From Bacteroidota bacterium (GTDB lineage: Bacteria > Bacteroidota > Bacteroidia > Bacteroidales > PUMT01): 52,944 nucleotides of DNA. The stretch spans positions 1-52,944 of the forward strand of contig PUMT01000022.1 in NCBI GenBank assembly GCA_003551495.1, given 5' to 3'. Below are positions 37,810 through 52,944 of this stretch, piece after piece. A program made the translations under genes and the position numbers. The stretch's first letter is position 1; each line of letters opens with the position of its first letter. A model generated the notes under the pieces. The model was not told the origin of the DNA. It worked only from the letters and a program-made list of their open reading frames with translations, and made no database searches.

Positions 37810-39453
37810 TTATAATTTGGGACCTGCGGCTACCAGCCGCTTGCCTTCATCAGAGTCGGTAAACATCTCAAAATTGTTGATGAATTTTTGGGCCAACTCA
37901 CAGCAGATTCTGTCATACTCCTCCTTGTCCTCCCACATATTCCTGGGATTCAGGATTCTGCTGTCAACACCTTTTAGGGTTTTGGGGATGGATAAATTGA
38001 AGACAGGCATTGTTTCATATTCAGCTTCCAGAATTGAACCGTCGTGTATTGCATCTATAATTGTTCTTGTAGCCGGTATGTCAATCCTTTTCCCTACTCC
38101 GTATTTTCCGCCTACCCATCCGGTATTGACAAGATACGCCTTCGAGTTATGAGCATCCATCTTTCTGGCAAGCTCACGCGCATAAACAGTTGGGTGCAGA
38201 AGGAGGAAAGCAGCACCGAAAGCAGCAGAAAAAGTGGGTTTGGGTTCAGTTATTCCCCTTTCAGTTCCCGCTACCTTTGCAGTGTATCCGCTCAGAAAGT
38301 GGTACATTGCCTGGTCGCGGGTTAATCTGGCAACCGGTGGCAGGATACCAAAGGCATCTGCTGTAAGGAAAATTATGTTTTTGGCATGGCCTCCTTTGGA
38401 AACTGGTTTTACAATATTTTTAATATGATAAATCGGATATGACATCCTTGTGTTCTCGGTTTTTGAACTGTCACTCATATCCACTACACCCGTTTTTTCG
38501 TCGTAAACCACATTTTCAAGTAATGCGTCACGCTTCATTGAATTGTAAATATCGGGTTCATTTTCCTTGCTCAGGTTGATTACCTTTGCATAGCAGCCTC
38601 CCTCAAAATTAAATATTCCATCATCATCCCATCCATGTTCGTCATCTCCAATAAGCTTTCTTTTAGGATCGGCAGAAAGTGTGGTTTTGCCCGTTCCTGA
38701 AAGGCCGAACATAATGGCTGTGTCACCTTTATCTCCCATATTGGCAGAACAGTGCATTGATGCAATATTTTTCAGGGGGAGCAGGTAGTTCATTATTGAA
38801 AAGAAGCCCTTTTTTATCTCTCCTCCGTACCACGTTCCGCCCACACATGCCATACCGGCGCCAATGTTAAATGCAACAAACACCTCACTGTTCAATCCCT
38901 GTTCTTCCCATTTGGGATTTGTGATTTTCGGTGCATTCAGCATTACAAAATCCGGCTTGAAGTTTTCAAGCTCCTCTTCTGTCGGCCTGATAAACATGTT
39001 TTTCACAAAATGTGCCATCCATGCAACTTCGGTTATAACCCTTATGCCTATTCTTGTATCGGGATTAGCACCGGCAAATGCATCCTGAACATACAGCCTT
39101 TTGCCTGAAAGCTGCTTCTGGGCAAGCGTTTTCAGGTGTTCCCAAACCTCAGGTGAAATAGGTTTGTTATCCGAACTTTTTCTTTCGGGAGATTTCCACC
39201 AGATATTTTTCTCTGAAGAAGGCTCTTTCACTATATACTTGTCTTTTGGAGAGCGGCCGGTAAATATTCCTGTATCAACAGCAACCGCACCTGTACTTGT
39301 AACAAAGCCTTTTTCAAGGCCTTCCAGGTTCGGGTCGGTTTCGTGCCTGAACAGTTCTTCATATGAGAGGTTGTGAAATACCTGTCCCGGATTTTCAATG
39401 CCATAAGCTGACAGGTCAATCTTTGTTTTTTGAACGGGGTCCTTAGTATCCAT
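37810..39453 (-). CDS. pckA: Phosphoenolpyruvate carboxykinase (ATP)
   Basis: [52 protein letters not shown]. Confidence 0.98.
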
Positions 39454-39542
39454 AAACGGGAATTTTAATTTTAATAGACTGGGAAATGATATTTATATCT
39501 CAAAAATAACCAATAAACCGGAAACAAAATGCTAATTTAAAG

Positions 39543-39577
39543 AAAAAAGCAGCATTTGTAAAAAACGCTGCTTTTTT
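39543..39577 (-). terminator. Intrinsic terminator downstream of ppdK
   Basis: aaaaaagcagc...gctgctttttt inverted repeat. Confidence 0.75.
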
Positions 39578-39723
39578 ATCTGAATTTACGAGTTATGTAT
39601 TTAAGGTAGTTCGAAAAAAGTTTTTGATCAATTCAAACTGTTAGTTTATAATTTTTCGCCCCAGACCCCCACCCCGCAGATATTTCAATGCGCAATGAAT
39701 GGCAGGGGACGATCATTATTTGT

Positions 39724-42453
39724 TTATTCCATATCCTTTATTGCTGCATGTGCGGCTGCCAGTCTGGCCACCGGAACCCTGTAGGGAGAACAGCTTACAT
39801 AATCCATTCCGGCTCTGTGGCAAAACTCAACCGATGACGGCTCACCTCCATGCTCACCGCATATACCAATCTTCAGATCCTTTTTGGTTTTCCTTCCTTT
39901 TTTGACAGCCATGTCCACCAGCTGTCCCACTCCCTCCTGATCTAGCACCTGGAAGGGGTCTACTTTCAGTATTCCTTTTTCCAGGTATATATCGAGGAAT
40001 GTGCCGGCATCATCGCGTGAGTAGCCGAATGTCATCTGAGTCAGGTCATTTGTTCCGAATGAGAAGAAATCGGCTGCACCGGCGATCTTGTCGGCTGTAA
40101 GGCATGCCCTGGGCACCTCTATCATGGTCCCTACAAGATAATCGATCCTGTCATTATATGCACTGAAAACCTCTTCTGCGGTATTGCGGACTATCTCAGC
40201 CTGCAATTCCATCTCTTCGACGTTTCCAGTCAGCGGAATCATTATTTCAGGTACCGCCGTTATATTTTTCTTCTTCAGGTTAAGAGCAGCCTCTATTATT
40301 GCCCTTGACTGCATTTCGGTAATTTCAGGGTAGGTATTGCCAAGACGGCATCCCCTGTGCCCGAGCATAGGGTTGAACTCATGAAGCGAATCAACCTTTG
40401 CCTTTACCTCTTCAGCCGAAATTCCCATGTCCTTTGCCATCTCTTCCTGGTTCTTTTTTTCGTGGGGAACAAACTCATGCAGGGGCGGATCAAGCAATCT
40501 TACAGTTACGGGCAAGTCCTGCATCGCCTCAAAGATACCTTCGAAATCTGACCTCTGGACAGGCAACAGCTTTTCAAGGGCTTTTCTGCGCCCGCTTTCA
40601 TCATCTGCAAGTATCATCTGGCGCATCAACCTGATACGGTCGCCTTCGAAAAACATATGCTCTGTACGGCAAAGTCCTATTCCCCCTGCACCGAATTTTC
40701 TTGCAACCTTCGAATCGTGAGGTGAATCGGCGTTTGTGCGTACATACATCCTTGTATATTTGTCAGTCAGCTCCATCAGCTCCCCAAAACTTCCTGTAAG
40801 CTCCGGATTGATGGTCGGAATTTTTCCTTCGTAAACATTTCCGGTTGTACCATTCAGCGAAAGCCAGTCTCCTTCGCTGTAAACCTTACCGTCAACGGAA
40901 ACAGTCTTTTCCCTGTAGTTTACCTTCAGCTTGCCTGCTCCTGAAACACAGCATTTGCCCATACCCCTTGCAACTACAGCTGCATGGGATGTCATTCCCC
41001 CGCGGGCTGTAAGGATGCCTTTTGCAAGATTCATCCCCTTGAGATCTTCGGGAGATGTTTCCACACGTACCAGCAACACTTCCTTGCCTTTGGCATGCCA
41101 CTCCTCCGCATCATCAGCAAAAAACACTATTTGTCCGGTTGCAGCACCAGGAGATGCAGGCAATCCCTTTGCAATCACTTCCGATTTCTCCATTTCACCC
41201 TTGTCAAATACCGGATGCAAAAGCTCATCAAGTCTTGCAGGAGTACAACGCAATACAGCAGTGGGTTCATCAATCAGTCCTTCATGAAGCATATCCATTG
41301 CAATCTTTACCATTGCAGCACCCGTACGTTTCCCGTTCCTGGTCTGCAGCATCCAGAGTTTCCCCTCCTGTATGGTGAACTCTATATCCTGCATATCCTT
41401 GTAATGTATTTCCAGCTTTTCCTGTATTTCAAAAAGCTCCTTGTATAGTTCAGGCATGCACTCTTCAAGGGAAGGATAGCTGTTTTTCCTGGTCTCTTCA
41501 TCAACTGCCGCAAGCTTAGCCCAGCGAACAGAACCTTCCTTTGTGATCTGCTGGGGAGTTCTTGTACCTGCTACAACATCCTCACCCTGCGCATCAATCA
41601 GGTATTCACCGTTGAATATCTTTTCGCCGGTTGCAGCATCACGTGTAAAAGCCACGCCGGTAGCAGAATTCTGTCCCATATTACCGTAAACCATCGCCTG
41701 CACATTAACCGCTGTTCCCCATTCCTCAGGGATTTTGTTAATCTTGCGGTAATATGTAGCACGGGGATTGTTCCAGCTTTCAAATACTGCAATTACCGAA
41801 CCCCATAACTGTTCATAGGGATCGGTCGGGAAATCCTTTCCGGCCTTTTCCCTTACAATCTTTTTAAATCTTGACACCAGTTCCTTGAAATCTTCTGCCT
41901 TGAGTTCGTTGTCATTTTCCACTCCCAGCTCTTCCTTGAGCTTGTCCATAGCTTCATCAAAAGGATCATGGTCTTCCTTTGACTCAGGTTTGAGACCCAT
42001 CACAACATCCCCGTACATCTGTATAAACCTCCTGTAGCTGTCCCATGCAAATCTTTCATTACCGGTTTTAGCTATCAACGCCTCAACTGTTTCATCATTC
42101 ATTCCAAGGTTCAGCACTGTGTCCATCATCCCCGGCATAGAAGCCTTTGCACCTGAGCGGACTGAAAGAAGGCAAGGGTTGTCTTTGCTGGTAAAACCAG
42201 CTCCCATAATATCTTCTACGTATTTTACTGCCTTTTCAACTTCATCCCTGATCAATTCGATGGTTTTCTCCCTGCCCTGTTTGTTGTACATAATACAAGC
42301 TTCAGTTGTAATTGTAAAGCCGGGGGGAACAGGAATGCCTATCAGGTTCATTTCTGCAAGATTTGCCCCTTTTCCGCCAAGAAGATCTTTCATTTCTGCA
42401 TTACCCTCAGCCTGTCTGTTACCAAAGGTATATACATATTTAACATTCGCCAT
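39724..42453 (-). CDS. ppdK: Pyruvate, phosphate dikinase
   Basis: LLGGKGANLAEM, SVRSGA..SMPGMMDT, GGMTSHAAVVAR (phospho-His), GLCRTEHMF, FSFGTNDLTQ, ICGEHGG. Confidence 0.98.
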   Translation of the reverse strand: MANVKYVYTFGNRQAEGNAEMKDLLGGKGANLAEMNLIGIPVPPGFTITTEACIMYNKQGREKTIELIRDEVEKAVKYVEDIMGAGFTSKDNPCLLSVRSGAKASMPGMMDTVLNLGMNDETVEALIAKTGNERFAWDSYRRFIQMYGDVVMGLKPESKEDHDPFDEAMDKLKEELGVENDNELKAEDFKELVSRFKKIVREKAGKDFPTDPYEQLWGSVIAVFESWNNPRATYYRKINKIPEEWGTAVNVQAMVYGNMGQNSATGVAFTRDAATGEKIFNGEYLIDAQGEDVVAGTRTPQQITKEGSVRWAKLAAVDEETRKNSYPSLEECMPELYKELFEIQEKLEIHYKDMQDIEFTIQEGKLWMLQTRNGKRTGAAMVKIAMDMLHEGLIDEPTAVLRCTPARLDELLHPVFDKGEMEKSEVIAKGLPASPGAATGQIVFFADDAEEWHAKGKEVLLVRVETSPEDLKGMNLAKGILTARGGMTSHAAVVARGMGKCCVSGAGKLKVNYREKTVSVDGKVYSEGDWLSLNGTTGNVYEGKIPTINPELTGSFGELMELTDKYTRMYVRTNADSPHDSKVARKFGAGGIGLCRTEHMFFEGDRIRLMRQMILADDESGRRKALEKLLPVQRSDFEGIFEAMQDLPVTVRLLDPPLHEFVPHEKKNQEEMAKDMGISAEEVKAKVDSLHEFNPMLGHRGCRLGNTYPEITEMQSRAIIEAALNLKKKNITAVPEIMIPLTGNVEEMELQAEIVRNTAEEVFSAYNDRIDYLVGTMIEVPRACLTADKIAGAADFFSFGTNDLTQMTFGYSRDDAGTFLDIYLEKGILKVDPFQVLDQEGVGQLVDMAVKKGRKTKKDLKIGICGEHGGEPSSVEFCHRAGMDYVSCSPYRVPVARLAAAHAAIKDME

Positions 42454-42676: not shown

Positions 42677-44008
42677 TCATCGGGCACGATGTCTCAGGAG
42701 ATGTCTGAGAGGACTTACCATTCTTTGGAGCAGGCTCAGATCATCGGTTGATATTTCGGCTGTTCCTGTAAGTTCACGTATTACATCTATTTCATAGCCA
42801 TAGGATGTAACCGGACCATTGGTAAGATCCAGAACAGCCGGGAATCCCGTTTCAAGCGGGCCGCTGGAAATAGAGTGAACCCTTGCTTCAATCATCCCGA
42901 ATTCCATATATGGATAGCCGTCCAGTTTTATATTGACAATTTGTCCGGGTCTTACCTTCCCTGCCCCCCTGTGCGGCAATATAAGTCGCGCATGAAGCTC
43001 CCCCTTATCTTCCGGCACAACTGAAAAAACGGGGTCGCCTTCCCTCACTTCCTGCAGGACACTCCAGATCATTACATAATTCAGTATCCCGTCAGTTGAA
43101 GAAACAACAAGATATCTTTTTTCCCATGCAGAAACTGAGCTTTCAAGTTGCCTGAGGGCATTTACAAGACCGGTTACCAGATCCTGTCTCCTCTGCTCCT
43201 CCTCCATCCTTGTATCGGTAATGGAGTGTCTCAGTCTTGCAATAGTTACTGCTGTATTTGAAAGTGAGAGCCTTGCCGATTCAACAGCCTGCTCTTTTTC
43301 CAGAAGTGAAGAGCGTGCTTTTTCGAAGTCAGATGTAGATATAACACCCGTAGAATAAAGTAATGAGTCTCTTCTGAACTGGCTCCTGGTAAGCTCAAGA
43401 TCGGTCAGTGCCAGATTTTCCTGTGATTCAAGTACCCTGAAATACTGTTCATACTCCTTCAGTTCTTCTTCAAGAGCATTGATCTTCCTTTTGTAAAAAT
43501 CCTGTGATTCAAAAATATTGAAATCATTTACAGTTTTAACGAGTTGGTTATAGTAAGGCTGAATCTCGCCAAGTACAAGGTCGCGCGGAAAAGTGAACCC
43601 TTTAAAATACTGTTCCGGACTGCCGTTGTTATTAACTTCCTTCAGAATATCAAGTAACCTGAATACATCCCTGTGGCGTGCAGGATTTTCGATAACAGCC
43701 AAAGTATCGGAATACTTAACAAAATCCCCGTCTTTCCTGAAAATAGTTGTAAGCCTTCCTGTTGAGCGGGCTGTAATAACTGACGGAGGATTTTCAGTGG
43801 TAATAATGACCGGGGCGGTTACAATATCTGGATAACTGAAAACTCCGCTACCGGCAAGTATAATAACCACAACTGCAAACATCACTCCGATACCCGACCT
43901 TACAAGCCAGCCGGGTGGAGTTCCCATTATATCCTGTACCTCTTCCGACCGGATCGATATCTTTTCAGCTTTCCTTTTCAGGCTTTCATCATCAGTTTGC
44001 CTTTCCAT
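42677..44008 (-). CDS. HlyD-family type I secretion adaptor
   Basis: RSEEVQDIMGTPPGWLVRSG, single TM, long coiled coil, GAGKVRPGQ.V.IKLDGYPYMEFG; adjacent to the PCAT. Confidence 0.92.
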   Translation of the reverse strand: MERQTDDESLKRKAEKISIRSEEVQDIMGTPPGWLVRSGIGVMFAVVVIILAGSGVFSYPDIVTAPVIITTENPPSVITARSTGRLTTIFRKDGDFVKYSDTLAVIENPARHRDVFRLLDILKEVNNNGSPEQYFKGFTFPRDLVLGEIQPYYNQLVKTVNDFNIFESQDFYKRKINALEEELKEYEQYFRVLESQENLALTDLELTRSQFRRDSLLYSTGVISTSDFEKARSSLLEKEQAVESARLSLSNTAVTIARLRHSITDTRMEEEQRRQDLVTGLVNALRQLESSVSAWEKRYLVVSSTDGILNYVMIWSVLQEVREGDPVFSVVPEDKGELHARLILPHRGAGKVRPGQIVNIKLDGYPYMEFGMIEARVHSISSGPLETGFPAVLDLTNGPVTSYGYEIDVIRELTGTAEISTDDLSLLQRMVSPLRHLLRHRAR

Positions 44009-44042: not shown

Positions 44043-46235
44043 TCACAGTTCAAGCTGGTTCTTTACCAGTGTATAGTATGCTCCCTTTTTACGGGCAAGT
44101 TCTTCATGTGTGCCGGTTTCTGCAATTTCACCTTTTTCAAGTACAATAATGCGGTCGGCATCTTTGACGGTGCTGAGCCTGTGCGCAACAACAACTACTG
44201 TTTTCCCCCTGAAAAATTCATTGAGGTTTTCCATAATTATCTTCTCATTATTTGCATCAAGGGCATTTGTCGCTTCATCAAAAAAGATGTATGCCGGATC
44301 CTTATAAACGGCTCTGGCGATCAGAAGCCTTTGTTTCTGCCCTTCACTCAGTCCATGTCCTTCACTGCCGATTTTGGTGTTGTACCCCAGGGGAAGTTCT
44401 TCAATAAAATCGGATATATTTGCCGTTTTTGCAGCATTGAGCAGCCTCACCTTGTCTATTCTCTCTTCGCCTGGAGCTATGTTGTTTGCAATGGTGTCGG
44501 AGAAAATGTAGCCGTCCTGCATAACAACCCCGCAATTCTTTCGCCACATACGTACACTGTAAACATCCAGTCTGCTGCTGCCCAGCCTTATCTCTCCTTT
44601 CGCAGGTGGATAGAACCCAAGAAGGAGCCGGATAAGGGTGGTTTTACCGCTACCGGATGTTCCAACAATAGCAGTCTTTTTGCCCCCTTCCAGACCGAAT
44701 GATATATTTTTCAGTACCATCTCTGATTCAGGGCCTTCATACTGAAAAGAGACCGATTCGCCCTCCAGGGATGTCTTAGCGGGGATCTCGTGTGCCTTAG
44801 CCTCACCTGAATCCTCTTCATCCGGACGGTTGTGAATTTCACCAAGGCGTTCCAGACTGATCTTTGCATCCTGCGTGGTATTGAAAAAGGTTATAATCTG
44901 TTCTATGGGACTGTTAAGCTGACCTATAATATACTGAACGGCCAGCATCATACCGAGTGTCATTGTACCTTCCACAACTGCAGTTGCAGCAATAACTGTA
45001 ATTACAATATTTTTCATCTCATTGAGGACAAGTGCGCCCGATTGCTGATACTGCCTCAGAGCCAGTCCTTTCACCCCAATCCTGAAAAGTCTGGCACGGA
45101 TTTGTTCCCATTCCCATCGTTTCTGTTGTTCGCATCCCTGCAGCTTTATCTCCTGCATCCCTTGTATAAGCTGGATGAGGTTACTCTGGTGGGCTGATTG
45201 TTGTGCAAACCTTTTGTAATCCAGCTCGGCCCTTTTTTTCAGGAAGATCCAGACCCATGCGGCATAAAGGATGCTTCCTGCAAAAAATATTGCAAATATC
45301 AGACGGTTATAGTACAGCAGTACCAGTCCGAACACCACAATATTAACCAGTGAAAAAAGAATTCTCAGTGTTGTCCCGGTAAGGAATGTTTCTATTCTCC
45401 TGTGATCTCCAATACGCTGCATAAGGTCACCGGTAAGCTTGGTGTCGAAAAACCTCATGGGGAGCCTCATCAGTTTAATGAGAAAATCGGAAATAAGTGA
45501 TATATTCACCCTGACCCCGATATGAAGGAGGATCCAGTTCCTTATAAAATCTACAGATGCCCTGCTTAAAGTAAGTACAAGCTGTGCGATAAGGACAAGG
45601 TAAATAAAGCTTATATTCTGGTTGCCGATACCGTAATCAACAATACTCTGGGTGAGAAAAGGGAATATAAGCTGCAGCAAGCTTGCCAGCAGAAGTCCCA
45701 GAAAAAGCTGTATCACCAGCTTCCTGTAAGGTGTAAGATATGAAAAAAGAAAAGAAAAACTTGCCTTGTTTTTCCGGTCATCCTCAGCCGCATGGAAGTC
45801 GGGTGTAGGTTCAAGAAGCAGTACCACCCCTTTCTCTTCTCCTTTTTCCTTTGTGGAAGCCCAGCACCGCATGAACTCTTCCCTGTTGAACCGTACCAGT
45901 CCACCCGCAGGATCAGCAACATGTAAAATTTCCCTGCCTTTTTTACCGGTGATCTTGTGTAAAACAACAAAATGATCCTGGTTCCAGTGAATAATTGCAG
46001 GAAGGCGTGCTTCTCCTGCGAGCTGATCAAATGTAAGTTTGACACCAAGTGTTCTGAAGCCGATACTTTCGGCGGCCTGACTAATGCCAAGCAGGCTCAC
46101 TCCTTCACGGGTAATATAACTCCTGTCTCTCAGGGTAGACAATGAATAGCGTTTACCGTAAAAAGCGGCCACCATTCTCAGGCAGGTAGGACCGCAATCC
46201 ATGGCATCTGGTTGTCTGTAATGCGGAAAAGCCAT
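44043..46235 (-). CDS. Peptidase-containing ABC transporter (C39 + TMD + NBD)
   Basis: QPDAMDCGPTCL (catalytic Cys14), HWNQDHFVV (His), ADP (Asp); Walker A GTSGSGKTT, LSEGQKQR, FFDEATNALD, VAHRLST. Confidence 0.96.
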   Translation of the reverse strand: MAFPHYRQPDAMDCGPTCLRMVAAFYGKRYSLSTLRDRSYITREGVSLLGISQAAESIGFRTLGVKLTFDQLAGEARLPAIIHWNQDHFVVLHKITGKKGREILHVADPAGGLVRFNREEFMRCWASTKEKGEEKGVVLLLEPTPDFHAAEDDRKNKASFSFLFSYLTPYRKLVIQLFLGLLLASLLQLIFPFLTQSIVDYGIGNQNISFIYLVLIAQLVLTLSRASVDFIRNWILLHIGVRVNISLISDFLIKLMRLPMRFFDTKLTGDLMQRIGDHRRIETFLTGTTLRILFSLVNIVVFGLVLLYYNRLIFAIFFAGSILYAAWVWIFLKKRAELDYKRFAQQSAHQSNLIQLIQGMQEIKLQGCEQQKRWEWEQIRARLFRIGVKGLALRQYQQSGALVLNEMKNIVITVIAATAVVEGTMTLGMMLAVQYIIGQLNSPIEQIITFFNTTQDAKISLERLGEIHNRPDEEDSGEAKAHEIPAKTSLEGESVSFQYEGPESEMVLKNISFGLEGGKKTAIVGTSGSGKTTLIRLLLGFYPPAKGEIRLGSSRLDVYSVRMWRKNCGVVMQDGYIFSDTIANNIAPGEERIDKVRLLNAAKTANISDFIEELPLGYNTKIGSEGHGLSEGQKQRLLIARAVYKDPAYIFFDEATNALDANNEKIIMENLNEFFRGKTVVVVAHRLSTVKDADRIIVLEKGEIAETGTHEELARKKGAYYTLVKNQLEL

Positions 46236-46492: not shown

Positions 46493-47317
46493 TTACATTG
46501 CAATATGTTTTCTGGCTGAAACACCAAGCCTGTAAAACCTTTCTATTAAAGTACCATTTGTTTTCAGGGGCAGGGAAAAATAGAGTGCTGAACCGTTATA
46601 ACTTTCCGATTCGGTCCAGAACCTGCCGTTCATTATCTCAACAATACTTCTGGCAATTGTCAGCGGCAAGCCTCCGCTTTCAGGGTGGCATGAATATTCT
46701 CCCCCACCGTTGTATGATTTTGTTTCCCCGTTCATTTCACATCTTTTCCCTGAATACCTTACAAAGAAGCGCATAGTGCCGCCATCTTTGCCAAACCCGA
46801 ATTTAACATATCCTTCGGGAGTATTTCTTACAGCACATTCTATAAGATTCCGCATTGCGGATTTAAGCCGGTTTTTGTCAGTTATCACATTTGAGAGGTT
46901 TACATTCCCCCTGCATGGAATAAGGTTGAGCTTTTTGGATTCAACTGCTTCGCAATTTTTATATTCAATGTATAGTTCATCCACCATTGAATTCAGGCAA
47001 AGCTTATCCTTTTCAAGTTTCACCTTGCCCGATTGCAGCAATGTGAGGTCAACCATATTGTCAATAAGCCTGAGTAACAATTCGCTGTTTTCATTGATGT
47101 GGCGGACAAACTCCTTTTTATCCTCCGCACCCAGCTCATCGTCTGCAAGCAGATTTGCAAACCCCACTATGGCATTCATAGGAGTTCTGAGTTCATGTGA
47201 CACATTTGACAAAAAAAGCGTCCTGATAGAGTCAAACTGCCTGTTTTTCCGCTCAAGATCCTCCTTCAGCTCCCTTATTGCCGACAACAACTTTCTATTT
47301 TCATTGAAATAACCCAT
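46493..47317 (-). CDS. Sensorless histidine kinase-like protein with degenerate HATPase domain
   Basis: Intact H-box FLSNVSHELRTPMNAIVGF; N-box reads NLIECAVRNT, G1 reads YSGKR, G2 reads SGGLPL. Confidence 0.85.
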   Translation of the reverse strand: MGYFNENRKLLSAIRELKEDLERKNRQFDSIRTLFLSNVSHELRTPMNAIVGFANLLADDELGAEDKKEFVRHINENSELLLRLIDNMVDLTLLQSGKVKLEKDKLCLNSMVDELYIEYKNCEAVESKKLNLIPCRGNVNLSNVITDKNRLKSAMRNLIECAVRNTPEGYVKFGFGKDGGTMRFFVRYSGKRCEMNGETKSYNGGGEYSCHPESGGLPLTIARSIVEIMNGRFWTESESYNGSALYFSLPLKTNGTLIERFYRLGVSARKHIAM

Positions 47318-47366: not shown

Positions 47367-48125
47367 TTAGAGAGATTCCAGGATAGAGGCGGCCCTGTTG
47401 CTGTAATACCCATCACCGTCTTTTATCCGTGTGAAATACTCCCTTGCCTTTTCGTTTTCTTCAAGTTTAACATAGCAAAGCCCTTTATACCACTCTGCAT
47501 TCTCGACAAAGAGATTGTCCCCGTGTTCAACAACATCTTCAAGTGATCCAAGTGCTTTGGCAAACTGACCGGTTTCCATATATGAAATCCCGGCATAGAA
47601 TTTTGAGGCAATGTTGTCCGGATCGTTTTCGAGCACCTCTTCAAACAATACAATTGCCGACCCGAATTCCCTGTTCTCGTATTGGAGCATGGCATTTACC
47701 ATCAATTCATCCAGTTCTGTATCACCTGAACGAACATTCATAACTCCGTCATATGTTTCATAATGCATTGAAAACAGGTCTTCTGCAGCAGGCTGGTTGC
47801 CGTAAAAATAAACTGCAGATGCAACTGCAATAAGCACCGCAACAAGCGATGCAGCAGCATACTTGATCATACCTTGGGAATAAACCCTTTCCGGTTTCTT
47901 CTTCAGTGTCCGTCGGTCACTGTCAAACAGCCTGTTCATCTGGTCGCGCAAAGCCATCACATCATCATCGAGTATTGCTTCGCTGACTTCCTGCTGCAAC
48001 CTGACCTCTTCGGAAAGACGTGGGTTTACTTCCATCTCGCCTCTGAACCACTGAAGCTCTTCTCCTTCCATTTCACCATTCAGGAATTTATCAATAAATG
48101 CCTGATAATTAAGTTCTTTTTTCAT
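47367..48125 (-). CDS. Single-pass membrane TPR protein with anti-sigma-like N-terminus
   Basis: IDKFLNGEMEGEELQWF...NPRLSEEV (zinc-less anti-sigma-domain pattern), TM YAAASLVAVLIAVASAVYFY, C-terminal TPRs (FYAGISY, AEWYKGLCY). Confidence 0.8.
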   Translation of the reverse strand: MKKELNYQAFIDKFLNGEMEGEELQWFRGEMEVNPRLSEEVRLQQEVSEAILDDDVMALRDQMNRLFDSDRRTLKKKPERVYSQGMIKYAAASLVAVLIAVASAVYFYGNQPAAEDLFSMHYETYDGVMNVRSGDTELDELMVNAMLQYENREFGSAIVLFEEVLENDPDNIASKFYAGISYMETGQFAKALGSLEDVVEHGDNLFVENAEWYKGLCYVKLEENEKAREYFTRIKDGDGYYSNRAASILESL

Positions 48126-48284: not shown

Positions 48285-48494
48285 TCAATCGGGCAGCAAC
48301 ATCTGGCTCGGCCTTACATAGATCCATCTTCTGGGCTCCTCCTGTTTCTTTTCATCTTCCTCTTTTTTTTCCTCTTCTGCCTTTTTTTCCTCACCACTAT
48401 CCGTGCCGCTTGTACGTCCGCCACGTATTCTGGAAAGAGCCGCACTGTCCAGTACATTCTCTTCCAACTTTAAAAAACCTTCAATTGTTTTCAT
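48285..48494 (-). CDS. Double-glycine-leader precursor peptide 1 (26-aa leader, 43-aa core)
   Basis: Leader ...EENVLDSAALSRIRGG has L(-12), L(-7), I(-4), GG; A-rich translation initiation region; same strand as the PCAT. Confidence 0.8.
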   Translation of the reverse strand: MKTIEGFLKLEENVLDSAALSRIRGGRTSGTDSGEEKKAEEEKKEEDEKKQEEPRRWIYVRPSQMLLPD

Positions 48495-48920
48495 GGCGAA
48501 AATATTTTAGTTATTATTAAAACCGTATTTGCCGGTAACTGCAGCAAAGCCCTGTTTCAGTCCGGCACACATAGCCGCAACACGCTGATACGGATGCGGC
48601 AATCATATATGGTTTTTGAATCACTCATCTTCTGCCTTTTGCTGCAGCAAACTTCACAAATAGTGAAGATGCGTTTGCAGCTTTAAAAAACTTCAGCTTT
48701 CAACTTTGTCCCATTTTGGGCATTCCCCTGGCTGAAGGTCATTCAGTAAACCGGTGATCTATCCTCTTCATAATGCAACATTTGGCACTTGCATCAATAT
48801 TCCATCTCTTTTACCGGTTTCCTGCCGCCGTACCTTCATACGGCGGGGTTTTCCTGCCCGGGCCCTGTAATTATTACTTCAAGACACCCGGATTATATTT
48901 TAGTCTATACTGCTTATTTC

Positions 48921-49133
48921 TCAATACATACAACCTGTTTTATTTTCTTTCTCTTCTTCCTCCTCTTCTTCTTCATCTTCGTCGTCACCCGGCGGAGGAA
49001 TTATTATATCTTCATCTTCTCCGATAGGCAGTCCGTTGGTTCCGCCCCTGAGGGTGCCGAGTTCGTTGCGTGTTAAAACTGTTTCTTCAGGAAGTCCTGC
49101 CAAAAGGCTGAAAAAGTTTTTTGTAGTTTTCAT
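48921..49133 (-). CDS. Double-glycine-leader precursor peptide 2 (31-aa leader, 39-aa acidic, Pro-rich core)
   Basis: Leader ...EETVLTRNELGTLRGG has L(-12), E(-8), L(-7), L(-4), GG; paralogous to the leader of peptide 1. Confidence 0.82.
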   Translation of the reverse strand: MKTTKNFFSLLAGLPEETVLTRNELGTLRGGTNGLPIGEDEDIIIPPPGDDEDEEEEEEEEKENKTGCMY

Positions 49134-49363
49134 GACTTTAAAGTTTCAGGTTAGGTTTTATAATATTTTCAGGTGATTTTCAGCTTGGTTTTTAATCTTT
49201 GTTCATCTATAGGTGGGAAAACCTTAAATTTGTGACACGAAAAAGATCCCGGGTTTTCATTTTTTCTAAATAAGAAACTTTGTTTTTTGTTGCTTTACTT
49301 TGTTTTATGATTTATTTTCTAAATTATATTTTTTAATTTAATTTGCAGGGTTTTCTGTTTTGC

Positions 49364-49537: not shown

Positions 49538-52342
49538 ATGCCTTCAGCAAGAGCCGGTTTCATAGCAATATTCTGGATATTGGCGGCGGTTATCTTTCAG
49601 CTGCCCGCCTATCCTGCAGTTGCTTCCGGCGACACTATTGCATCCGATTCTGCCCTGCATTTTTACAGGATTGGAATATCTCAATACAGTGAAGGGCATA
49701 ATGAAAAAGCACTTGAGTCTCTTAACAGGACACTTCAGTTCTACAACAAAAGACCCGACACAGAAGCATCTGAGATAGCAGGTGTTTACTCCAACCTGGG
49801 TGTTGTCAGCAGGGTTCTGCTGAGATACGATGATGCAATAAGGTATTACGACACAGCACAGGTGATTCTGGAAGAGAATTTCGGGACAGATCATATAAAC
49901 CTTGGGGTGGTTTACCAGAACCAGGGGAACATATACAGGGAGGGACGCGACACCCCGAGAGCCCTTCAGCACTATTACAGGGCTCTGGCAATTTTTGAAA
50001 AACATGAGGGCATTCCTAACTGGCTTGCTTCCCTTTACAACAATATTGGATTATCTTATCTCGATACTGAAGAGTATGAAACTGCAATAAATTATTTTGA
50101 AAAATCTCTTGAACTCAGAAGAAAGCATCTGCCCCATGCTATAAGGACTCCTGCAGGGAACCTGGCAGTAAGCTACTATTACCTGGGAAACGAGGAAGAG
50201 TCCTCCCGCTATTTTGAAATGGCCTTGCAATCGACCATTGAGCACCGGGGTAAACTTTATCCCGGACTGGCAAACAACTACCTGAATTACGGCCTTCTCT
50301 TTGCAAGTGTTTCTCTCGATTACGGGAAAGCTATGGAGATGTACGAAAAAGCACTACACATCTTCGAGCACCACTTCGGCGAAAGAAATCCGGGCAGGTC
50401 TCGAGCGCTGATGAACATGGGGGGAGTTTACGAAATGCTCGGCAACTACCGAACAGCTATGGATTATTACCAGGAATCGCTTATTGCCATAAGCAGCTCA
50501 TTTGAATCCTCCTCCTGGGAGGACAATCCCGGAATAGAAAGCGCCCTGTCGTATACATACCTCTACGAAACACTGAGCAGGAAAGCCAATGCTTTGAAGG
50601 AACTGGGACTGGAAGAGGGAAATACCAGGAATATAAGACTGAGTCTTGAGACATACGACAAAACATTACGTGTACTTGAAACCATGAGGATGGGATACCA
50701 GACCGAAGAGAGCCGCCTGCACCTCTCCCAGAGTGAAAGCGACATATATCCGAAGGCAATAGATGCAGCATACCATATGTACAGGAAAACGGGTGACGAA
50801 ACTTATATCGAAAAAGGGTTCAACTTTTCAGAGCGCAGCAAGGCAGCTGTCCTGCTGGCCTCAATGAGAAATATTGAAGCACTTGAATTCGGAGGTGTGC
50901 CGCCTGAACTAAGGGAAGAGGAAGAAGGCTTGAAAAGGAGCCTGACAGCCTACACCGAACTTATTTACGAGGAAAGACAAAGGGCAAGGCCAAACGAGCA
51001 AAGGATCACCAACTGGGAAGAGAGAATATTTGAATTAAACCGGGAACTGGCAAGGCTTACTGAATTTCTGGAAAAAGAGTACCCAGACTATTACAACCTT
51101 AAATATGATCCCCGTTTCGTCTGCATAAGTAAAGTCCGTTCCGGTATGGCCCGGAGTGAAACCCTCCTTTCATACAGCATAAACGACTCTGTGCTGCACA
51201 TTTTTGTTGTAAACAGGAACGGCACACACTGGGAAGAAGTGCCTCTCCCCTTCAACCTTGAAGAAAAAGTCAACTCCTTTCTGGGGTTGATGAACTTCAA
51301 TTCGCTGTCAACCGATGCAGGAAACAATTTCAGGGCATTTTCAGAAATATCACATTTGCTTTACAGTATACTGGTACAGCCGGTAAGTGAAATTATCAGA
51401 GGCAGGAACCTCATTTTTATTCCCGACGGGGTTCTTTCATACCTTCCCTTTGAACTGCTCACAGTCAACAATGAGCCACACTCGGGAATAAACTTTGCAG
51501 CGCTCCCCTACCTGCTCAGGGAGCACCCTGTAAGTTACGCTTATTCTGCAACAATATGGACTGAAACACTAACCCACGAGATCAGTCCCAATAAAGACCT
51601 TATAGCTTTCGCTCCATACTATGAGATGGCCACCGGACAGGATACTGACAGTCCGGCCAGGGGTTATCGCAACAAACTCACTCCCCTGCCTGGTGCAAGG
51701 GCGGAAGCAAGGGCAGCTGCAGAAATATTCGGGGGAAAAGCCCTTTTTGACGAAGATGCATGTGAAGCAAATTTCAAGAGCATTGCAGGGGATTACCGGT
51801 TTATACACCTTGCTATGCACACGGTTATTGACGATGATGACCCCATGTTCTCCAAGCTGGTCTTCACGGATACCGGCGGAGAGTCAGGCGAAGATGACAT
51901 GCTCAATACACATGAGATATATAACCTCAGACTGAATGCGAGACTGGCAGTTCTAAGCTCCTGCAACAGCGGATACGGGAAATTGCAAAAGGGAGAGGGT
52001 ATAATGAGCCTTGCACGCGGTTTCCTTTTTGCAGGAGTGCCCTCGATAGTAATGACATTCTGGGAGATCGAAGACAAGTCGGGTGTAGACATAATGAAAA
52101 GGTTCTACCACCATCTTGGCAGGGGGAAGCGTACTGATGAAGCGTTAAGGCTTGCACGGCTCGAATTTATTGAGAACTCGGACATGCTTAGGTCACATCC
52201 CTATTTCTGGGGAGGCTACGTGTGCATAGGCAATCCAAGGGAGGCGGTCGCAACCGCACGTATCGTTCATACTGCCGTCATTGCTGCAGTTATAATTCTG
52301 GCACTGGGAATAACCTGGCTTGCAAGGAGGAAAAGAAAGTAA
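49538..52342 (+). CDS. TPR-CHAT (caspase-like, clan CD) protease with signal peptide and C-terminal membrane anchor
   Basis: Signal peptide, multiple TPRs (YSNLG, YQNQG, YNNIG, YLNYG, LMNMG), SERSKA, IPDGVLSYLPFE, IHLAMH (His761), VLSSCNSG (Cys809), HPYFWGGY, terminal TM followed by RRKRK. Confidence 0.93.
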   Translation: MPSARAGFIAIFWILAAVIFQLPAYPAVASGDTIASDSALHFYRIGISQYSEGHNEKALESLNRTLQFYNKRPDTEASEIAGVYSNLGVVSRVLLRYDDAIRYYDTAQVILEENFGTDHINLGVVYQNQGNIYREGRDTPRALQHYYRALAIFEKHEGIPNWLASLYNNIGLSYLDTEEYETAINYFEKSLELRRKHLPHAIRTPAGNLAVSYYYLGNEEESSRYFEMALQSTIEHRGKLYPGLANNYLNYGLLFASVSLDYGKAMEMYEKALHIFEHHFGERNPGRSRALMNMGGVYEMLGNYRTAMDYYQESLIAISSSFESSSWEDNPGIESALSYTYLYETLSRKANALKELGLEEGNTRNIRLSLETYDKTLRVLETMRMGYQTEESRLHLSQSESDIYPKAIDAAYHMYRKTGDETYIEKGFNFSERSKAAVLLASMRNIEALEFGGVPPELREEEEGLKRSLTAYTELIYEERQRARPNEQRITNWEERIFELNRELARLTEFLEKEYPDYYNLKYDPRFVCISKVRSGMARSETLLSYSINDSVLHIFVVNRNGTHWEEVPLPFNLEEKVNSFLGLMNFNSLSTDAGNNFRAFSEISHLLYSILVQPVSEIIRGRNLIFIPDGVLSYLPFELLTVNNEPHSGINFAALPYLLREHPVSYAYSATIWTETLTHEISPNKDLIAFAPYYEMATGQDTDSPARGYRNKLTPLPGARAEARAAAEIFGGKALFDEDACEANFKSIAGDYRFIHLAMHTVIDDDDPMFSKLVFTDTGGESGEDDMLNTHEIYNLRLNARLAVLSSCNSGYGKLQKGEGIMSLARGFLFAGVPSIVMTFWEIEDKSGVDIMKRFYHHLGRGKRTDEALRLARLEFIENSDMLRSHPYFWGGYVCIGNPREAVATARIVHTAVIAAVIILALGITWLARRKRK

Positions 52343-52344
52343 TA

Positions 52345-52944
52345 TCACACTTCATCGTCCCTCCTCTCTTTCATTATTCTTTTGAACTCCTTGTCATTTT
52401 TTATATTCTTCATCAGATGCCTCCAGCAGAGATACTTTTTTCTCCGGGCATAGCCGGAACTTCCATAACCCATCTTAAAGGCAATATGGTCATAGCTGTG
52501 TTTTCTGTAAAACATTGTAAGCACCTTTTTACAGTCAAATGCCAGATTCCGGTAATGCCTCTGGTAAATTTTTTCTTTTCTCAGGTATGCATCTCCCCTT
52601 GCCGGTGCATCAATCTTGCCTTCAACCTCCCTCTCTTCTGCAAGCGGTTCCTCAACACTGCCTTCCAGTTGCCCCTTAAGTTTATTGCGAGTTGCCGAAT
52701 CGGAACCCTTTGTGTCATACCAGAGGAACCTGCACATTACAAGGAAATATGAGGAAAAAGAAGCCTTAATATGCAGTTTGCCTTCGCGTAACTTTTTGAA
52801 TACGGAAATTACGGCATCCTGGAAAAGATCCCGTGCATCCTGCTCGTCGCCTTCATTATCCTTCACAAACTTCAGAACGGCGGGGAAGTACCTGCTGTAG
52901 ATATACTCCAAAACATCATTGTCCTTGTGGCGAATTCCATATAA
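52345..52944 (-). CDS. ECF-type sigma-70 factor (5'-truncated by the window edge)
   Basis: Frame stays open to base 52944 (LYGIRHKDNDVLEYIY...); region 2 DARDLFQDAVI, region 4 CKKVL..FY..HSYDHIAFKMGY...ARRKKYLC. Confidence 0.88.
   Translation of the reverse strand, partial: LYGIRHKDNDVLEYIYSRYFPAVLKFVKDNEGDEQDARDLFQDAVISVFKKLREGKLHIKASFSSYFLVMCRFLWYDTKGSDSATRNKLKGQLEGSVEEPLAEEREVEGKIDAPARGDAYLRKEKIYQRHYRNLAFDCKKVLTMFYRKHSYDHIAFKMGYGSSGYARRKKYLCWRHLMKNIKNDKEFKRIMKERRDDEV

Follow-up and report, generated by a model that had tools for sequence, protein, structure and literature searches.

What do two small peptides do when their genes lie beside a peptide exporter, a protease of the CHAT family and a sigma factor? 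The question is raised by contig PUMT01000022.1 of the Bacteroidota bacterium assembly GCA_003551495.1, which we analysed from position 1 to 52,944 (the window, meaning this whole stretch of 52,944 nucleotides). Two open reading frames (ORFs), A and B, encode precursors with a double-glycine (GG) leader, and a peptidase-containing ATP-binding cassette transporter (PCAT) is encoded downstream. The original prediction saw in them PCAT substrates with a conserved leader and a variable core. We propose instead that the peptides are controlled by a sigma factor, exported by the PCAT and act on a module of tetratricopeptide repeat (TPR) and CHAT proteins, so that the locus would be a signalling circuit and not a bacteriocin locus. 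Judged from sequence, this reading as a whole stands about an even chance of being right. The two precursor genes are as follows.

48921..49133, minus strand: ORF B, 70 aa with an ATG start; leader of 31 aa and 39-aa core, core net charge -15
48285..48494, minus strand: ORF A, 69 aa with an ATG start; leader of 26 aa and 43-aa core, core net charge -3

The two precursors had been described as opening with MKT..F and sharing EExVLxxxxLxx(I/L)RGG. Both are present on the minus strand, and their leaders (26 residues in A, 31 in B, each terminating in RGG) are 52% identical, with M1, K2, T3, F7, EExVL and RGG in common. The hydrophobic residues assigned to positions -12, -7 and -4 relative to the GG are found in both leaders (for -4/-7/-12, I/L/L in ORF A and L/L/L in ORF B) and in 44 of 44 family members; position -8 is Glu in ORF B and Ala in ORF A. 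Compared over their full length by BLASTP, A and B match with E = 0.18, which is not significant alone. A profile hidden Markov model (HMM) scan, which had been proposed as a check, was run with a profile made from relatives and containing no window sequence against every stop-to-stop frame of 25 aa or longer in the genome that carries the window, 64,597 in total. ORF B (E = 3e-17) and ORF A (E = 2.4e-6) came out as the top two of these frames, and the next frame had E = 0.6. This relatives-only profile is the decisive control, and it places the observation of A and B far beyond chance. Built with sequences of the sister genus only, the profile scored B at 1.7e-9 and A at 3.6e-6, and it aligned to ORF A over no more than the leader and six residues.

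Orthologues point the same way. ORF B has a relative that is 82% identical (P0003). ORF A has a 71-aa orthologue in a genome of the same genus (G001), found by aligning intergenic DNA, and a 68-aa one (P0031); a word-indexed homologue search with ORF A returned its self-match only, and P0031 emerged later from an exhaustive profile search. These three have in common the leader, a Lys/Glu-rich spacer and a C-terminal W-I-Y-x-R-P-S-Q-x-L-x-P-D, in which W57, I58, Y59, R61, P62, S63, Q64, L66, P68 and D69 are invariant (10 of the final 13 positions). The window and G001 share 76% identity in ORF B, 66% in ORF A and 82% in the promoter block described below, against 43% and 49% in the flanking intergenic DNA. 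We consider ORF A and ORF B almost certain to be real genes on this sequence evidence. Annotation pipelines had been expected to miss them easily, and in this the original prediction was mistaken: both exact sequences are already called as gene products in the protein collection, where relatives appear as 'hypothetical protein'. No Pfam or NCBIfam model reached its cut-off on A or B, the matches being low-complexity noise and a sub-threshold hit to TIGR04149. The best ESM Atlas score for ORF B was 0.80, under the 0.9 level of meaning, and an Rfam gathering scan of the whole window gave 0 matches.

We then took family statistics over 44 unique sequences. An exhaustive profile search of 1.84 billion representatives gave 29 matches at E <= 1e-3, namely 28 peptides with lengths of 42-91 aa and a repeat protein of 401 aa that is unrelated to them; the named source records are Bacteroidales metagenome-assembled genomes (MAGs). 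Leader length ranges from 20 to 31 aa. The GG is present in 44/44, Arg at -3 in 42/44, I/V/L at -4 in 44/44, L/M at -7 in 44/44, E/Q at -8 in 40/44 and L/I/M at -12 in 44/44. The cores have a median length of 25 aa and are all anionic, with a median net charge of -6 and a range of -18 to -2, and they share a layout in which a Gly/Ser/Thr linker leads to an [IVLM]DEDI[LI][LI]PD-like motif (with a further P in the tandem sets of relatives) and then to an acidic tail. Eleven of the 44 stop exactly at PD. Across the 44 cores we saw no amphipathic or hydrophobic stretch beyond the 3-4-residue motif. That a short hydrophobic-Pro-Asp motif is conserved within a low-complexity core suggests that it is recognized by a protein.

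The core of ORF B is of the tail type, with GEDEDIIIPPP followed by a polyacidic Glu/Asp tail. ORF A, with its KE-rich spacer and C-terminal WIYVRPSQMLLPD, belongs to the PD-ending type, and no further copy lies between it and the TPR gene; by motif and position it is the local form of the PD-ending class. A PD-ending copy was present in six of the 14 related loci with at least two detected peptides, and in all six it is single, last and adjoins the TPR gene. The claim that the cores of A and B are unrelated thus stands for the two compared pairwise and fails beyond the pair, where each core type is conserved in other genomes. The idea of a conserved leader with a variable core has to be given up, since the core itself is conserved (linker, DEDILLPD-like motif and acidic tail, and the C-terminus of ORF A).

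Run at E <= 1, weak matches included, the leader profile picked up small frames in 17 of the 41 related genomes searched, and 11 of 19 further members of the window's family had them. The arrays of relatives consist of tandem ORFs of 48-70 aa in which leader and core are both conserved. At the level of the order, six of 401 evenly sampled genomes matched, a count that includes the window's own genome and one non-family peptide; the match in G347 was rejected as a member because it is a different GG peptide. By these searches the family is small, unnamed and confined to Bacteroidales-type Bacteroidota. In distant lineages the cores differ (for example, ...PPKSRDKDVFDYDE) yet keep an acidic-hydrophobic/aromatic-acidic character. 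Variant cores at L064:13302-13742 and L074:12485-12920 end in ...DGDFDYWPEPEV or ...DTDFDFWLEPEV, with an aromatic residue amid acidic ones, and resemble the acidic Trp/Tyr cargo motifs that kinesin-light-chain TPRs bind. N runs fall inside a peptide ORF in the arrays L009:1726-1997 and L010:1132-1380, so the peptide copy numbers of those genomes are lower bounds.

The peptides belong to a conserved module, whose other members in the window, from its end inwards, are listed here (the sigma factor is of the extracytoplasmic function (ECF) kind; TM, transmembrane segment).

52345..52944, minus strand: ECF-like sigma-70 family factor; region 2 detected; the frame reaches the window end
49538..52342, plus strand: TPR-CHAT protein, 934 aa, divergent from the peptide genes; CHAT domain PF12770 at E = 3e-58
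47367..48125, minus strand: single-pass TPR membrane protein, 252 aa; helical, anti-sigma-like N-terminal domain (cytoplasmic), one TM and a periplasmic 3-TPR domain (locations predicted)
46493..47317, minus strand: histidine kinase core, HisKA + HATPase_c, 274 aa; no TM segment or sensor domain
44043..46235, minus strand: PCAT, 730 aa; C39 peptidase, ABC transmembrane and ABC ATPase domains
42677..44008, minus strand: HlyD-family membrane fusion protein, 443 aa

Searches with tblastn found the order sigma factor, CHAT (divergent), peptide or peptides, TPR protein, kinase, PCAT and HlyD in 11 loci from two genera, and the full seven-gene order recurs in a genome of a distant family (G116). Because the grouping must not rest on the feature being counted, a set of 69 loci was gathered via the TPR membrane protein, not via the peptide, with flanks of up to 8 kb. 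Most of these come from Bacteroidales/Bacteroidota MAGs; the cultured carriers are Draconibacterium aestuarii Z1-6, Maribellus luteus XSD2 and Maribellus spp. CM-23 and YY47. A CHAT homologue was found in 46 of the 69, the kinase in 43, a peptide-profile match (E <= 0.01) in 27 and a PCAT with its N-terminal part in 14. Of the 41 loci in which at least 300 nt were available beyond the CHAT start codon, 33 had a small GG-leader ORF no more than 2.2 kb away on the strand divergent from CHAT. Within the CHAT-divergent stretch, 52 of 202 small ORFs fit the GG-leader pattern, versus 15 of 3,021 elsewhere. Going by these neighbourhoods, the constant partners of the peptides are the TPR-CHAT protease, the ECF-like sigma factor and the TPR membrane protein, not the PCAT. 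The close head-to-head pairing of CHAT and peptide genes suggests a partnership more direct than that between a sensor and its output, and the conserved cores together with these constant neighbours leave the picture of a bacteriocin or of cargo of the RiPP class (ribosomally synthesized and post-translationally modified peptides) unsupported. In four Lentimicrobiaceae-type loci (L087, L088, L089 and L096) the sigma gene adjoins the TPR gene and a kinase homologue lies about 4.5 kb upstream, and neither a CHAT homologue nor a peptide was detected within the 8-kb flanks; these may be a reduced or rearranged form of the module.

The TPR-CHAT protein has a signal-like hydrophobic N-terminus, a kinesin-light-chain-like TPR array, the CHAT domain, a C-terminal TM and a basic tail. 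Both His residues of HLAMH (H757 and H761) and the LS[AS]C Cys (C809, within LSSC) are retained without variation by 36 of 36 homologues. The C-terminal hydrophobic segment with its basic tail was present in all four homologues whose C-termini were inspected. The nearest relatives of the TPR array in the PDB, by sequence, are the TPRs of kinesin light chain, LGN/Pins, Hop and Rap. Kinesin-light-chain, LGN and Hop TPRs bind short acidic linear motifs. The 252-aa TPR protein has a hydrophobic segment near residues 86-108, preceded by basic residues, and a conserved helical N-terminal domain. From the hydrophobic segments of the two proteins, both TPR domains and the CHAT domain are predicted to be periplasmic, which makes the TPR-CHAT protein a predicted periplasmic protease.

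The sigma factor matches Sigma70_r2 with E = 1.5e-6, over the Pfam cut-off, and scores under the cut-off with two NCBIfam models, TIGR02937 (34.7 bits; cut-off 42.9) and TIGR02985 (36 bits; cut-off 126.4). Among the 48 sigma-positive loci, its gene stands directly upstream of the TPR gene on the same strand in 30, 16 of them with gaps of 4-33 nt; of the rest, 15 have the window's order and three are adjacent with larger gaps. This layout is that of the usual sigma/anti-sigma operon and is the main reason for calling the TPR protein anti-sigma-like.

Regulation of the peptide genes was examined through the promoter-like motifs ahead of them, the first of which is the promoter block compared above with G001.

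49211..49256, minus strand: promoter-like block before the first peptide gene, AAAC-N15-TGTCAC-N17-ACCT, with TGTCAC read as an ECF-type -35

Within the window's family, TGTCAC-N17-(C/T)ACCT stands before the first peptide gene of each array (in the window at 49211..49237, minus strand). The genome contains four TGTCAC-N17-ACCT sites, and the one at 49211..49256 is the only one that also has AAAC-N14-16-TGTCAC. A reading of AAAC-N14-16-TGTCAC as a -35/-10 pair was dropped when a wider comparison gave the conserved TGTCAC-N17-ACCT spacing and the words of other lineages. Those lineages carry GGTTACC or GGTAAC[CG] at the equivalent position, with a lineage-specific AT-rich element 15-17 nt on. 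In 27 of 32 loci the first peptide ATG is preceded, at a distance of 74-108 nt, by one of the three -35-like words, which were selected after inspecting the sequences; the figure for control windows is 93 of 2,505. A sigma-70 consensus scan of the region gave 12 sites against 7.0 +/- 3.0 in shuffles, no excess over chance.

In loci of the Draconibacterium/Maribellus type the sigma and peptide promoters share a motif. There, GGGTTACCTTTT-N11-GAATA(A)TATA is found before the peptide array and again 38-40 nt before the sigma gene. Its GGTTACCTTTT-N11-GAATA form occurs exactly twice per genome in three cultured genomes, at the sigma and peptide promoters, which are 5.3-5.6 kb apart; other matches to the pattern in these genomes number 1, 4 and 4, against 1, 3 and 1 for the reversed control. 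In the cultured carriers, the transcript start would fall a few bases downstream of the GAATATATA element. A sigma factor that is autoregulated and has the peptide array as its only other predicted target is the best evidence for placing the peptides within the circuit, and such motifs make it probable that the peptide operon is under the control of the module's sigma factor. In the sister genus (L047-L051, L054, L055, L061 and L073), a conserved ATATTTTGGGGAATACCTTAnTTT...TTAGGTTTGGAAAC lies about 60-120 nt upstream of the sigma gene. It resembles the Bacteroidetes housekeeping -33/-7 promoter, and suggests constitutive synthesis of the sigma factor in that genus, without autoregulation.

A further element follows the first peptide gene of the window.

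48825..48846, minus strand: GC-rich hairpin, some 75 nt past the stop codon of ORF B

In this genus, three genomes have a hairpin behind the B-type gene, each with its own sequence (z-scores of -2.1, -3.1 and -3.7). No T-run follows the 48825..48846 hairpin on the coding strand; it would serve as a terminator or a stabiliser. GC-rich hairpins at this position would fit a peptide transcript that exceeds the transcript of the downstream genes.

The exporter had been placed about 2 kb downstream on the same strand. The PCAT indeed begins 2,050 bp after the ORF A stop, followed by the HlyD-type gene, and its C39 domain (Peptidase_C39, E = 3e-30 by Pfam) is the only one in the genome, which is 94% complete. 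In an alignment, its Cys, His (HFVV) and Asp (ADP) fall in the columns of the corresponding residues in the PCAT1 and ComA structures; these residues form the catalytic triad of C39 peptidases. Leader homologues near PCATs, whose absence would have told against the original prediction, were found in eight of 11 related loci from the two genera, the contig ending before the PCAT in the other three, and the linkage extends to the distant family (G116). We regard it as likely from these linkages that the peptides are PCAT cargo. In D. aestuarii, three tandem peptide genes adjoin the CHAT gene, the next genes are unrelated and on the opposite strand, and there is no adjacent PCAT; PCAT-sized C39 frames lie elsewhere in the cultured Draconibacterium/Maribellus-type genomes.

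Gene content varies between the kinase and the PCAT. The sister genus (L027-L032) has a gap of 4.6-5.5 kb there that is absent from the window's genus. In the one such gap read (L030:12300-16930) we found a second sigma-70/ECF-like gene together with one for a small membrane protein. An S9 prolyl-oligopeptidase-like protein of 717 aa, signal-like at its N-terminus, is also encoded there, as is a small ORF resembling lipocalins; as the peptide cores are Pro-rich, the S9 peptidase might process them. On the other side, directly after HlyD, window positions 37810-42453 hold large genes that by eye resemble pyruvate phosphate dikinase (909 aa) and PEP carboxykinase (547 aa). These genes are syntenic with the module in both same-genus genomes (83-91% identity), which fixes the right border of the module in the genus.

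Considering these data together, we propose the following circuit. The sigma factor of the module would drive the ECF-type promoter ahead of the peptide operon. The PCAT, with HlyD, would cut after RGG and export the core, with the new N-termini RTSGTD... and TNGLPI.... The acidic core would then act, as a ligand, substrate or pseudosubstrate, on the periplasmic TPR surfaces of the CHAT protease, of the presumed anti-sigma TPR protein or of both. CHAT proteolysis would govern release of the sigma factor and close a proteolytic sigma/anti-sigma feedback loop. That the peptide acts back on the TPR, CHAT and anti-sigma proteins is a tentative step, suggested by motif and gene pairing, to which we give somewhat less than an even chance. 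A stricter version, peptide autoinduction in Gram-negative Bacteroidota by parts that are not known to cooperate, is possible but rather doubtful: the CHAT protease would read the exported peptide in the periplasm, cleave the TPR anti-sigma protein and free an ECF sigma factor that targets nothing but its own operon and the peptides. In this version the protease might trim tail-type copies after ...PD, or the PD-ending copy might gate the protease.

Several observations weigh against this circuit. Export by PCAT and HlyD via an outer-membrane channel would bypass the periplasmic TPR domains, and a peptide that is the only predicted target of the sigma factor could equally be a pure output with no feedback. 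The identity of the TPR protein as an anti-sigma factor is presumed from gene order and architecture. In sequence tests for anti-sigma domains there was one weak Pfam match, to zf-HC2 (E = 0.017) and in a distant homologue only; a PDB profile search with the N-terminal domain gave nothing below E = 0.15; and the top Foldseek matches, to the cytoplasmic domains of MucA and RseA, were not significant (E = 4.4 and 7.2, from an AlphaFold2 model with a pLDDT of 65.9). No zinc-binding CHCC motif is evident in that domain. The role of the kinase is unexplained by the circuit. In the window's family the sigma gene is preceded not by TGTCAC but by a conserved TTTG-N20-TAGGTTTG block, presumably the Bacteroidetes housekeeping promoter type, so that the link from sigma factor to peptides is carried over to the window by module homology from Prolixibacteraceae-type loci. 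The choice of the three -35-like words with the sequences in view counts on the same side, as do the eight of 41 CHAT loci in which a GG-leader ORF was not found. The four sequencing runs that contain the locus are all DNA contigs from salt lake/soda lake metagenomes, with no RNA run among them. A complex prediction, made without controls, that paired residues 27-69 of ORF A (its core) with residues 109-252 of the TPR protein (its periplasmic part) scored 0.01 against a mark of 0.32 and is evidence neither way.

The alternative that survives best keeps the genes and the promoter and removes the feedback. The peptides would be the exported output of a sigma/anti-sigma/CHAT sensor whose TPR and CHAT domains sense some other extracytoplasmic cue; the output might be an acidic effector for secretion, for instance a peptide that binds cations or acts on matrix or surface, or it might inhibit a foreign protease. 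We think this unlikely, though it is the strongest of the alternatives. In its favour are the extreme acidity of the cores, with net charges down to -18, and a peptide array that is the sole predicted sigma-type promoter target besides the sigma operon in the three cultured genomes. A mere output leaves unaccounted for the head-to-head pairing with CHAT in 33 of 41 loci, the hydrophobic-Pro-Asp motif conserved in a low-complexity core and the single PD-ending copy kept last in six of the six arrays that have one.

It is less probable still that the peptides are unmodified class II-like bacteriocins that are exported by the PCAT and kill competitors, as the GG leader, the C39 PCAT and HlyD on the same strand and the tandem multiplication of precursors in relatives, common in bacteriocin loci, might lead one to expect. 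Class II bacteriocins have a cationic and/or amphiphilic, membrane-active core, often with a Cys pair, and a dedicated immunity gene next to the precursor. Here the core charge is -15 in B, -3 in A and -18 to -2 in the family, so that 44 of 44 cores are anionic; Cys is present in two of 44, and hydrophobic stretches reach only 3-4 residues. The cores are conserved across genera and not diversifying, and the array persists by CHAT and sigma genes where no PCAT is adjacent. We saw no candidate immunity gene in the seven-gene module and no small membrane-protein gene between the precursors and the TPR gene, immunity proteins being a class with no universal signature.

RiPP precursors whose core is modified by an unlinked enzyme before export, for example by the radical-SAM partners of TIGR04149 leaders, make a very improbable explanation. 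TIGR04149 (GG_sam_targ_CFB) describes radical-SAM-modified RiPP precursors of the same phylum, Bacteroidota, with a weakly similar leader and an unrelated core. ORF A scores 15.3 bits against it (15.1 in the genome scan), seven of 10 relatives give sub-threshold matches and the best of the 10 reaches 19.9; all of these are below the 25-bit cut-off, and ORF B has no match. By these scores A and B are not members of TIGR04149. The S9 prolyl-oligopeptidase-like gene between kinase and PCAT in L030 of the sister genus, with Pro-rich cores as possible substrates, speaks for processing of some kind and is absent from the locus of the window's genus. Pfam scans of the six neighbouring proteins, the part of the genome scanned for this purpose, found no radical-SAM, cyclase, dehydratase or ATP-grasp domain, and the cores are nearly devoid of Cys and lack the usual modifiable patterns. 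Finally, that one or both ORFs are chance open frames, as their shortness, the low complexity of the ORF A core, the E = 0.18 between A and B and the lack of expression data might allow, can be set aside as having next to no probability, given their first two places among 64,597 frames, orthologues that retain the frame and the C-terminal motif, conservation above that of the flanks and a fixed position of the family across dozens of genomes.

We compared the proposed circuit with known systems. Its leader and exporter are those of GG-leader/PCAT systems such as PCAT1, ComA/ComC and LahT: a leader ending in GG, hydrophobic residues at -4, -7 and -12, Glu or Gln at -8, a C39-ABC fusion and a HlyD partner. 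Leaders of this class run to about 15-30 aa and end in Gly-Gly (or GA/GS). The cargo differs, in that the core here is conserved, anionic and motif-bearing where theirs is variable, and the neighbour that stays constant across genomes is not the transporter but a TPR-CHAT protease together with a sigma factor. Systems of the ComC/ComD/ComE type have a peptide-sensing membrane histidine kinase and a response regulator in the locus. In contrast, the kinase here has no membrane sensor, and the window's module contains no response regulator gene. Heterocyst patterning in Nostoc brings a PCAT and a CHAT protease into one developmental signalling pathway, through HetC (a PCAT reported to export a small morphogen-type peptide) and HetF (the founding CHAT protease). 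The HetC and HetF genes are not known to lie in one locus. That system belongs to another phylum and its peptides are unrelated.

TPR-CHAT proteases under allosteric control are also found in craspase (TPR-CHAT Csx29 of type III-E CRISPR) and in the separase/securin pair, where a pseudosubstrate holds separase. These act in the cytoplasm or nucleus, and craspase is RNA-guided, whereas for the protease here a periplasmic location is predicted and its partner is an exported peptide. Craspase cleavage has been linked to a sigma factor. A precedent for release of the sigma factor by CHAT proteolysis is DdvA/DdvS, which combines an ECF-type sigma factor with a transmembrane anti-sigma protein that has periplasmic TPRs and, in the same polypeptide, a periplasmic TPR-CHAT caspase-like domain; signal-induced autoproteolysis is proposed as the trigger (PMC11506125). 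In the present module the 252-aa TPR protein and the self-anchored 934-aa TPR-CHAT protein come from two genes, one on each strand; the CHAT domain keeps its His and Cys invariant where the DdvA active site is described as incomplete (PMC11506125); and the predicted regulon is a GG-peptide array where theirs is a CBASS/CRISPR island. That paper also states that separase, restrained by its inhibitor securin, cleaves at an acidic (S/D/E)xExxR motif, and that craspases cut after Leu or Met (PMC11506125). A specificity other than for Asp is thus quite possible for the CHAT protease of the module.

Each protein family of the module, and the class of the peptides, is known; the conserved combination and the conserved acidic core appear undescribed. 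A search of full-text literature found no description of GG peptides tied to CHAT proteases or of this module; one apparent match (PMC12648112) was to an author's name and not to the domain, and the supplements of the DdvA paper, which lay outside the search, may list homologues. For genome mining, the locus carries a caution: having a PCAT as neighbour is not enough to class a GG-leader peptide as a bacteriocin or a RiPP, and the information lies in conservation of the core and in the regulatory neighbours. Peptide-based signalling has been worked out well in Firmicutes, while for Bacteroidota very little of it is known. The trigger of periplasmic TPR-CHAT/anti-sigma systems is likewise an open question. 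The parts of the DdvA account at hand name no triggering signal (PMC11506125). The module supplies a candidate ligand or substrate that is genetically tied to a periplasmic TPR-CHAT protease, as predicted, and to its sigma factor. In the cultured species the predicted regulon comprises two promoters and the module is present in cultivable, non-pathogenic Draconibacterium and Maribellus strains, so that the proposed circuit would be directly testable there.

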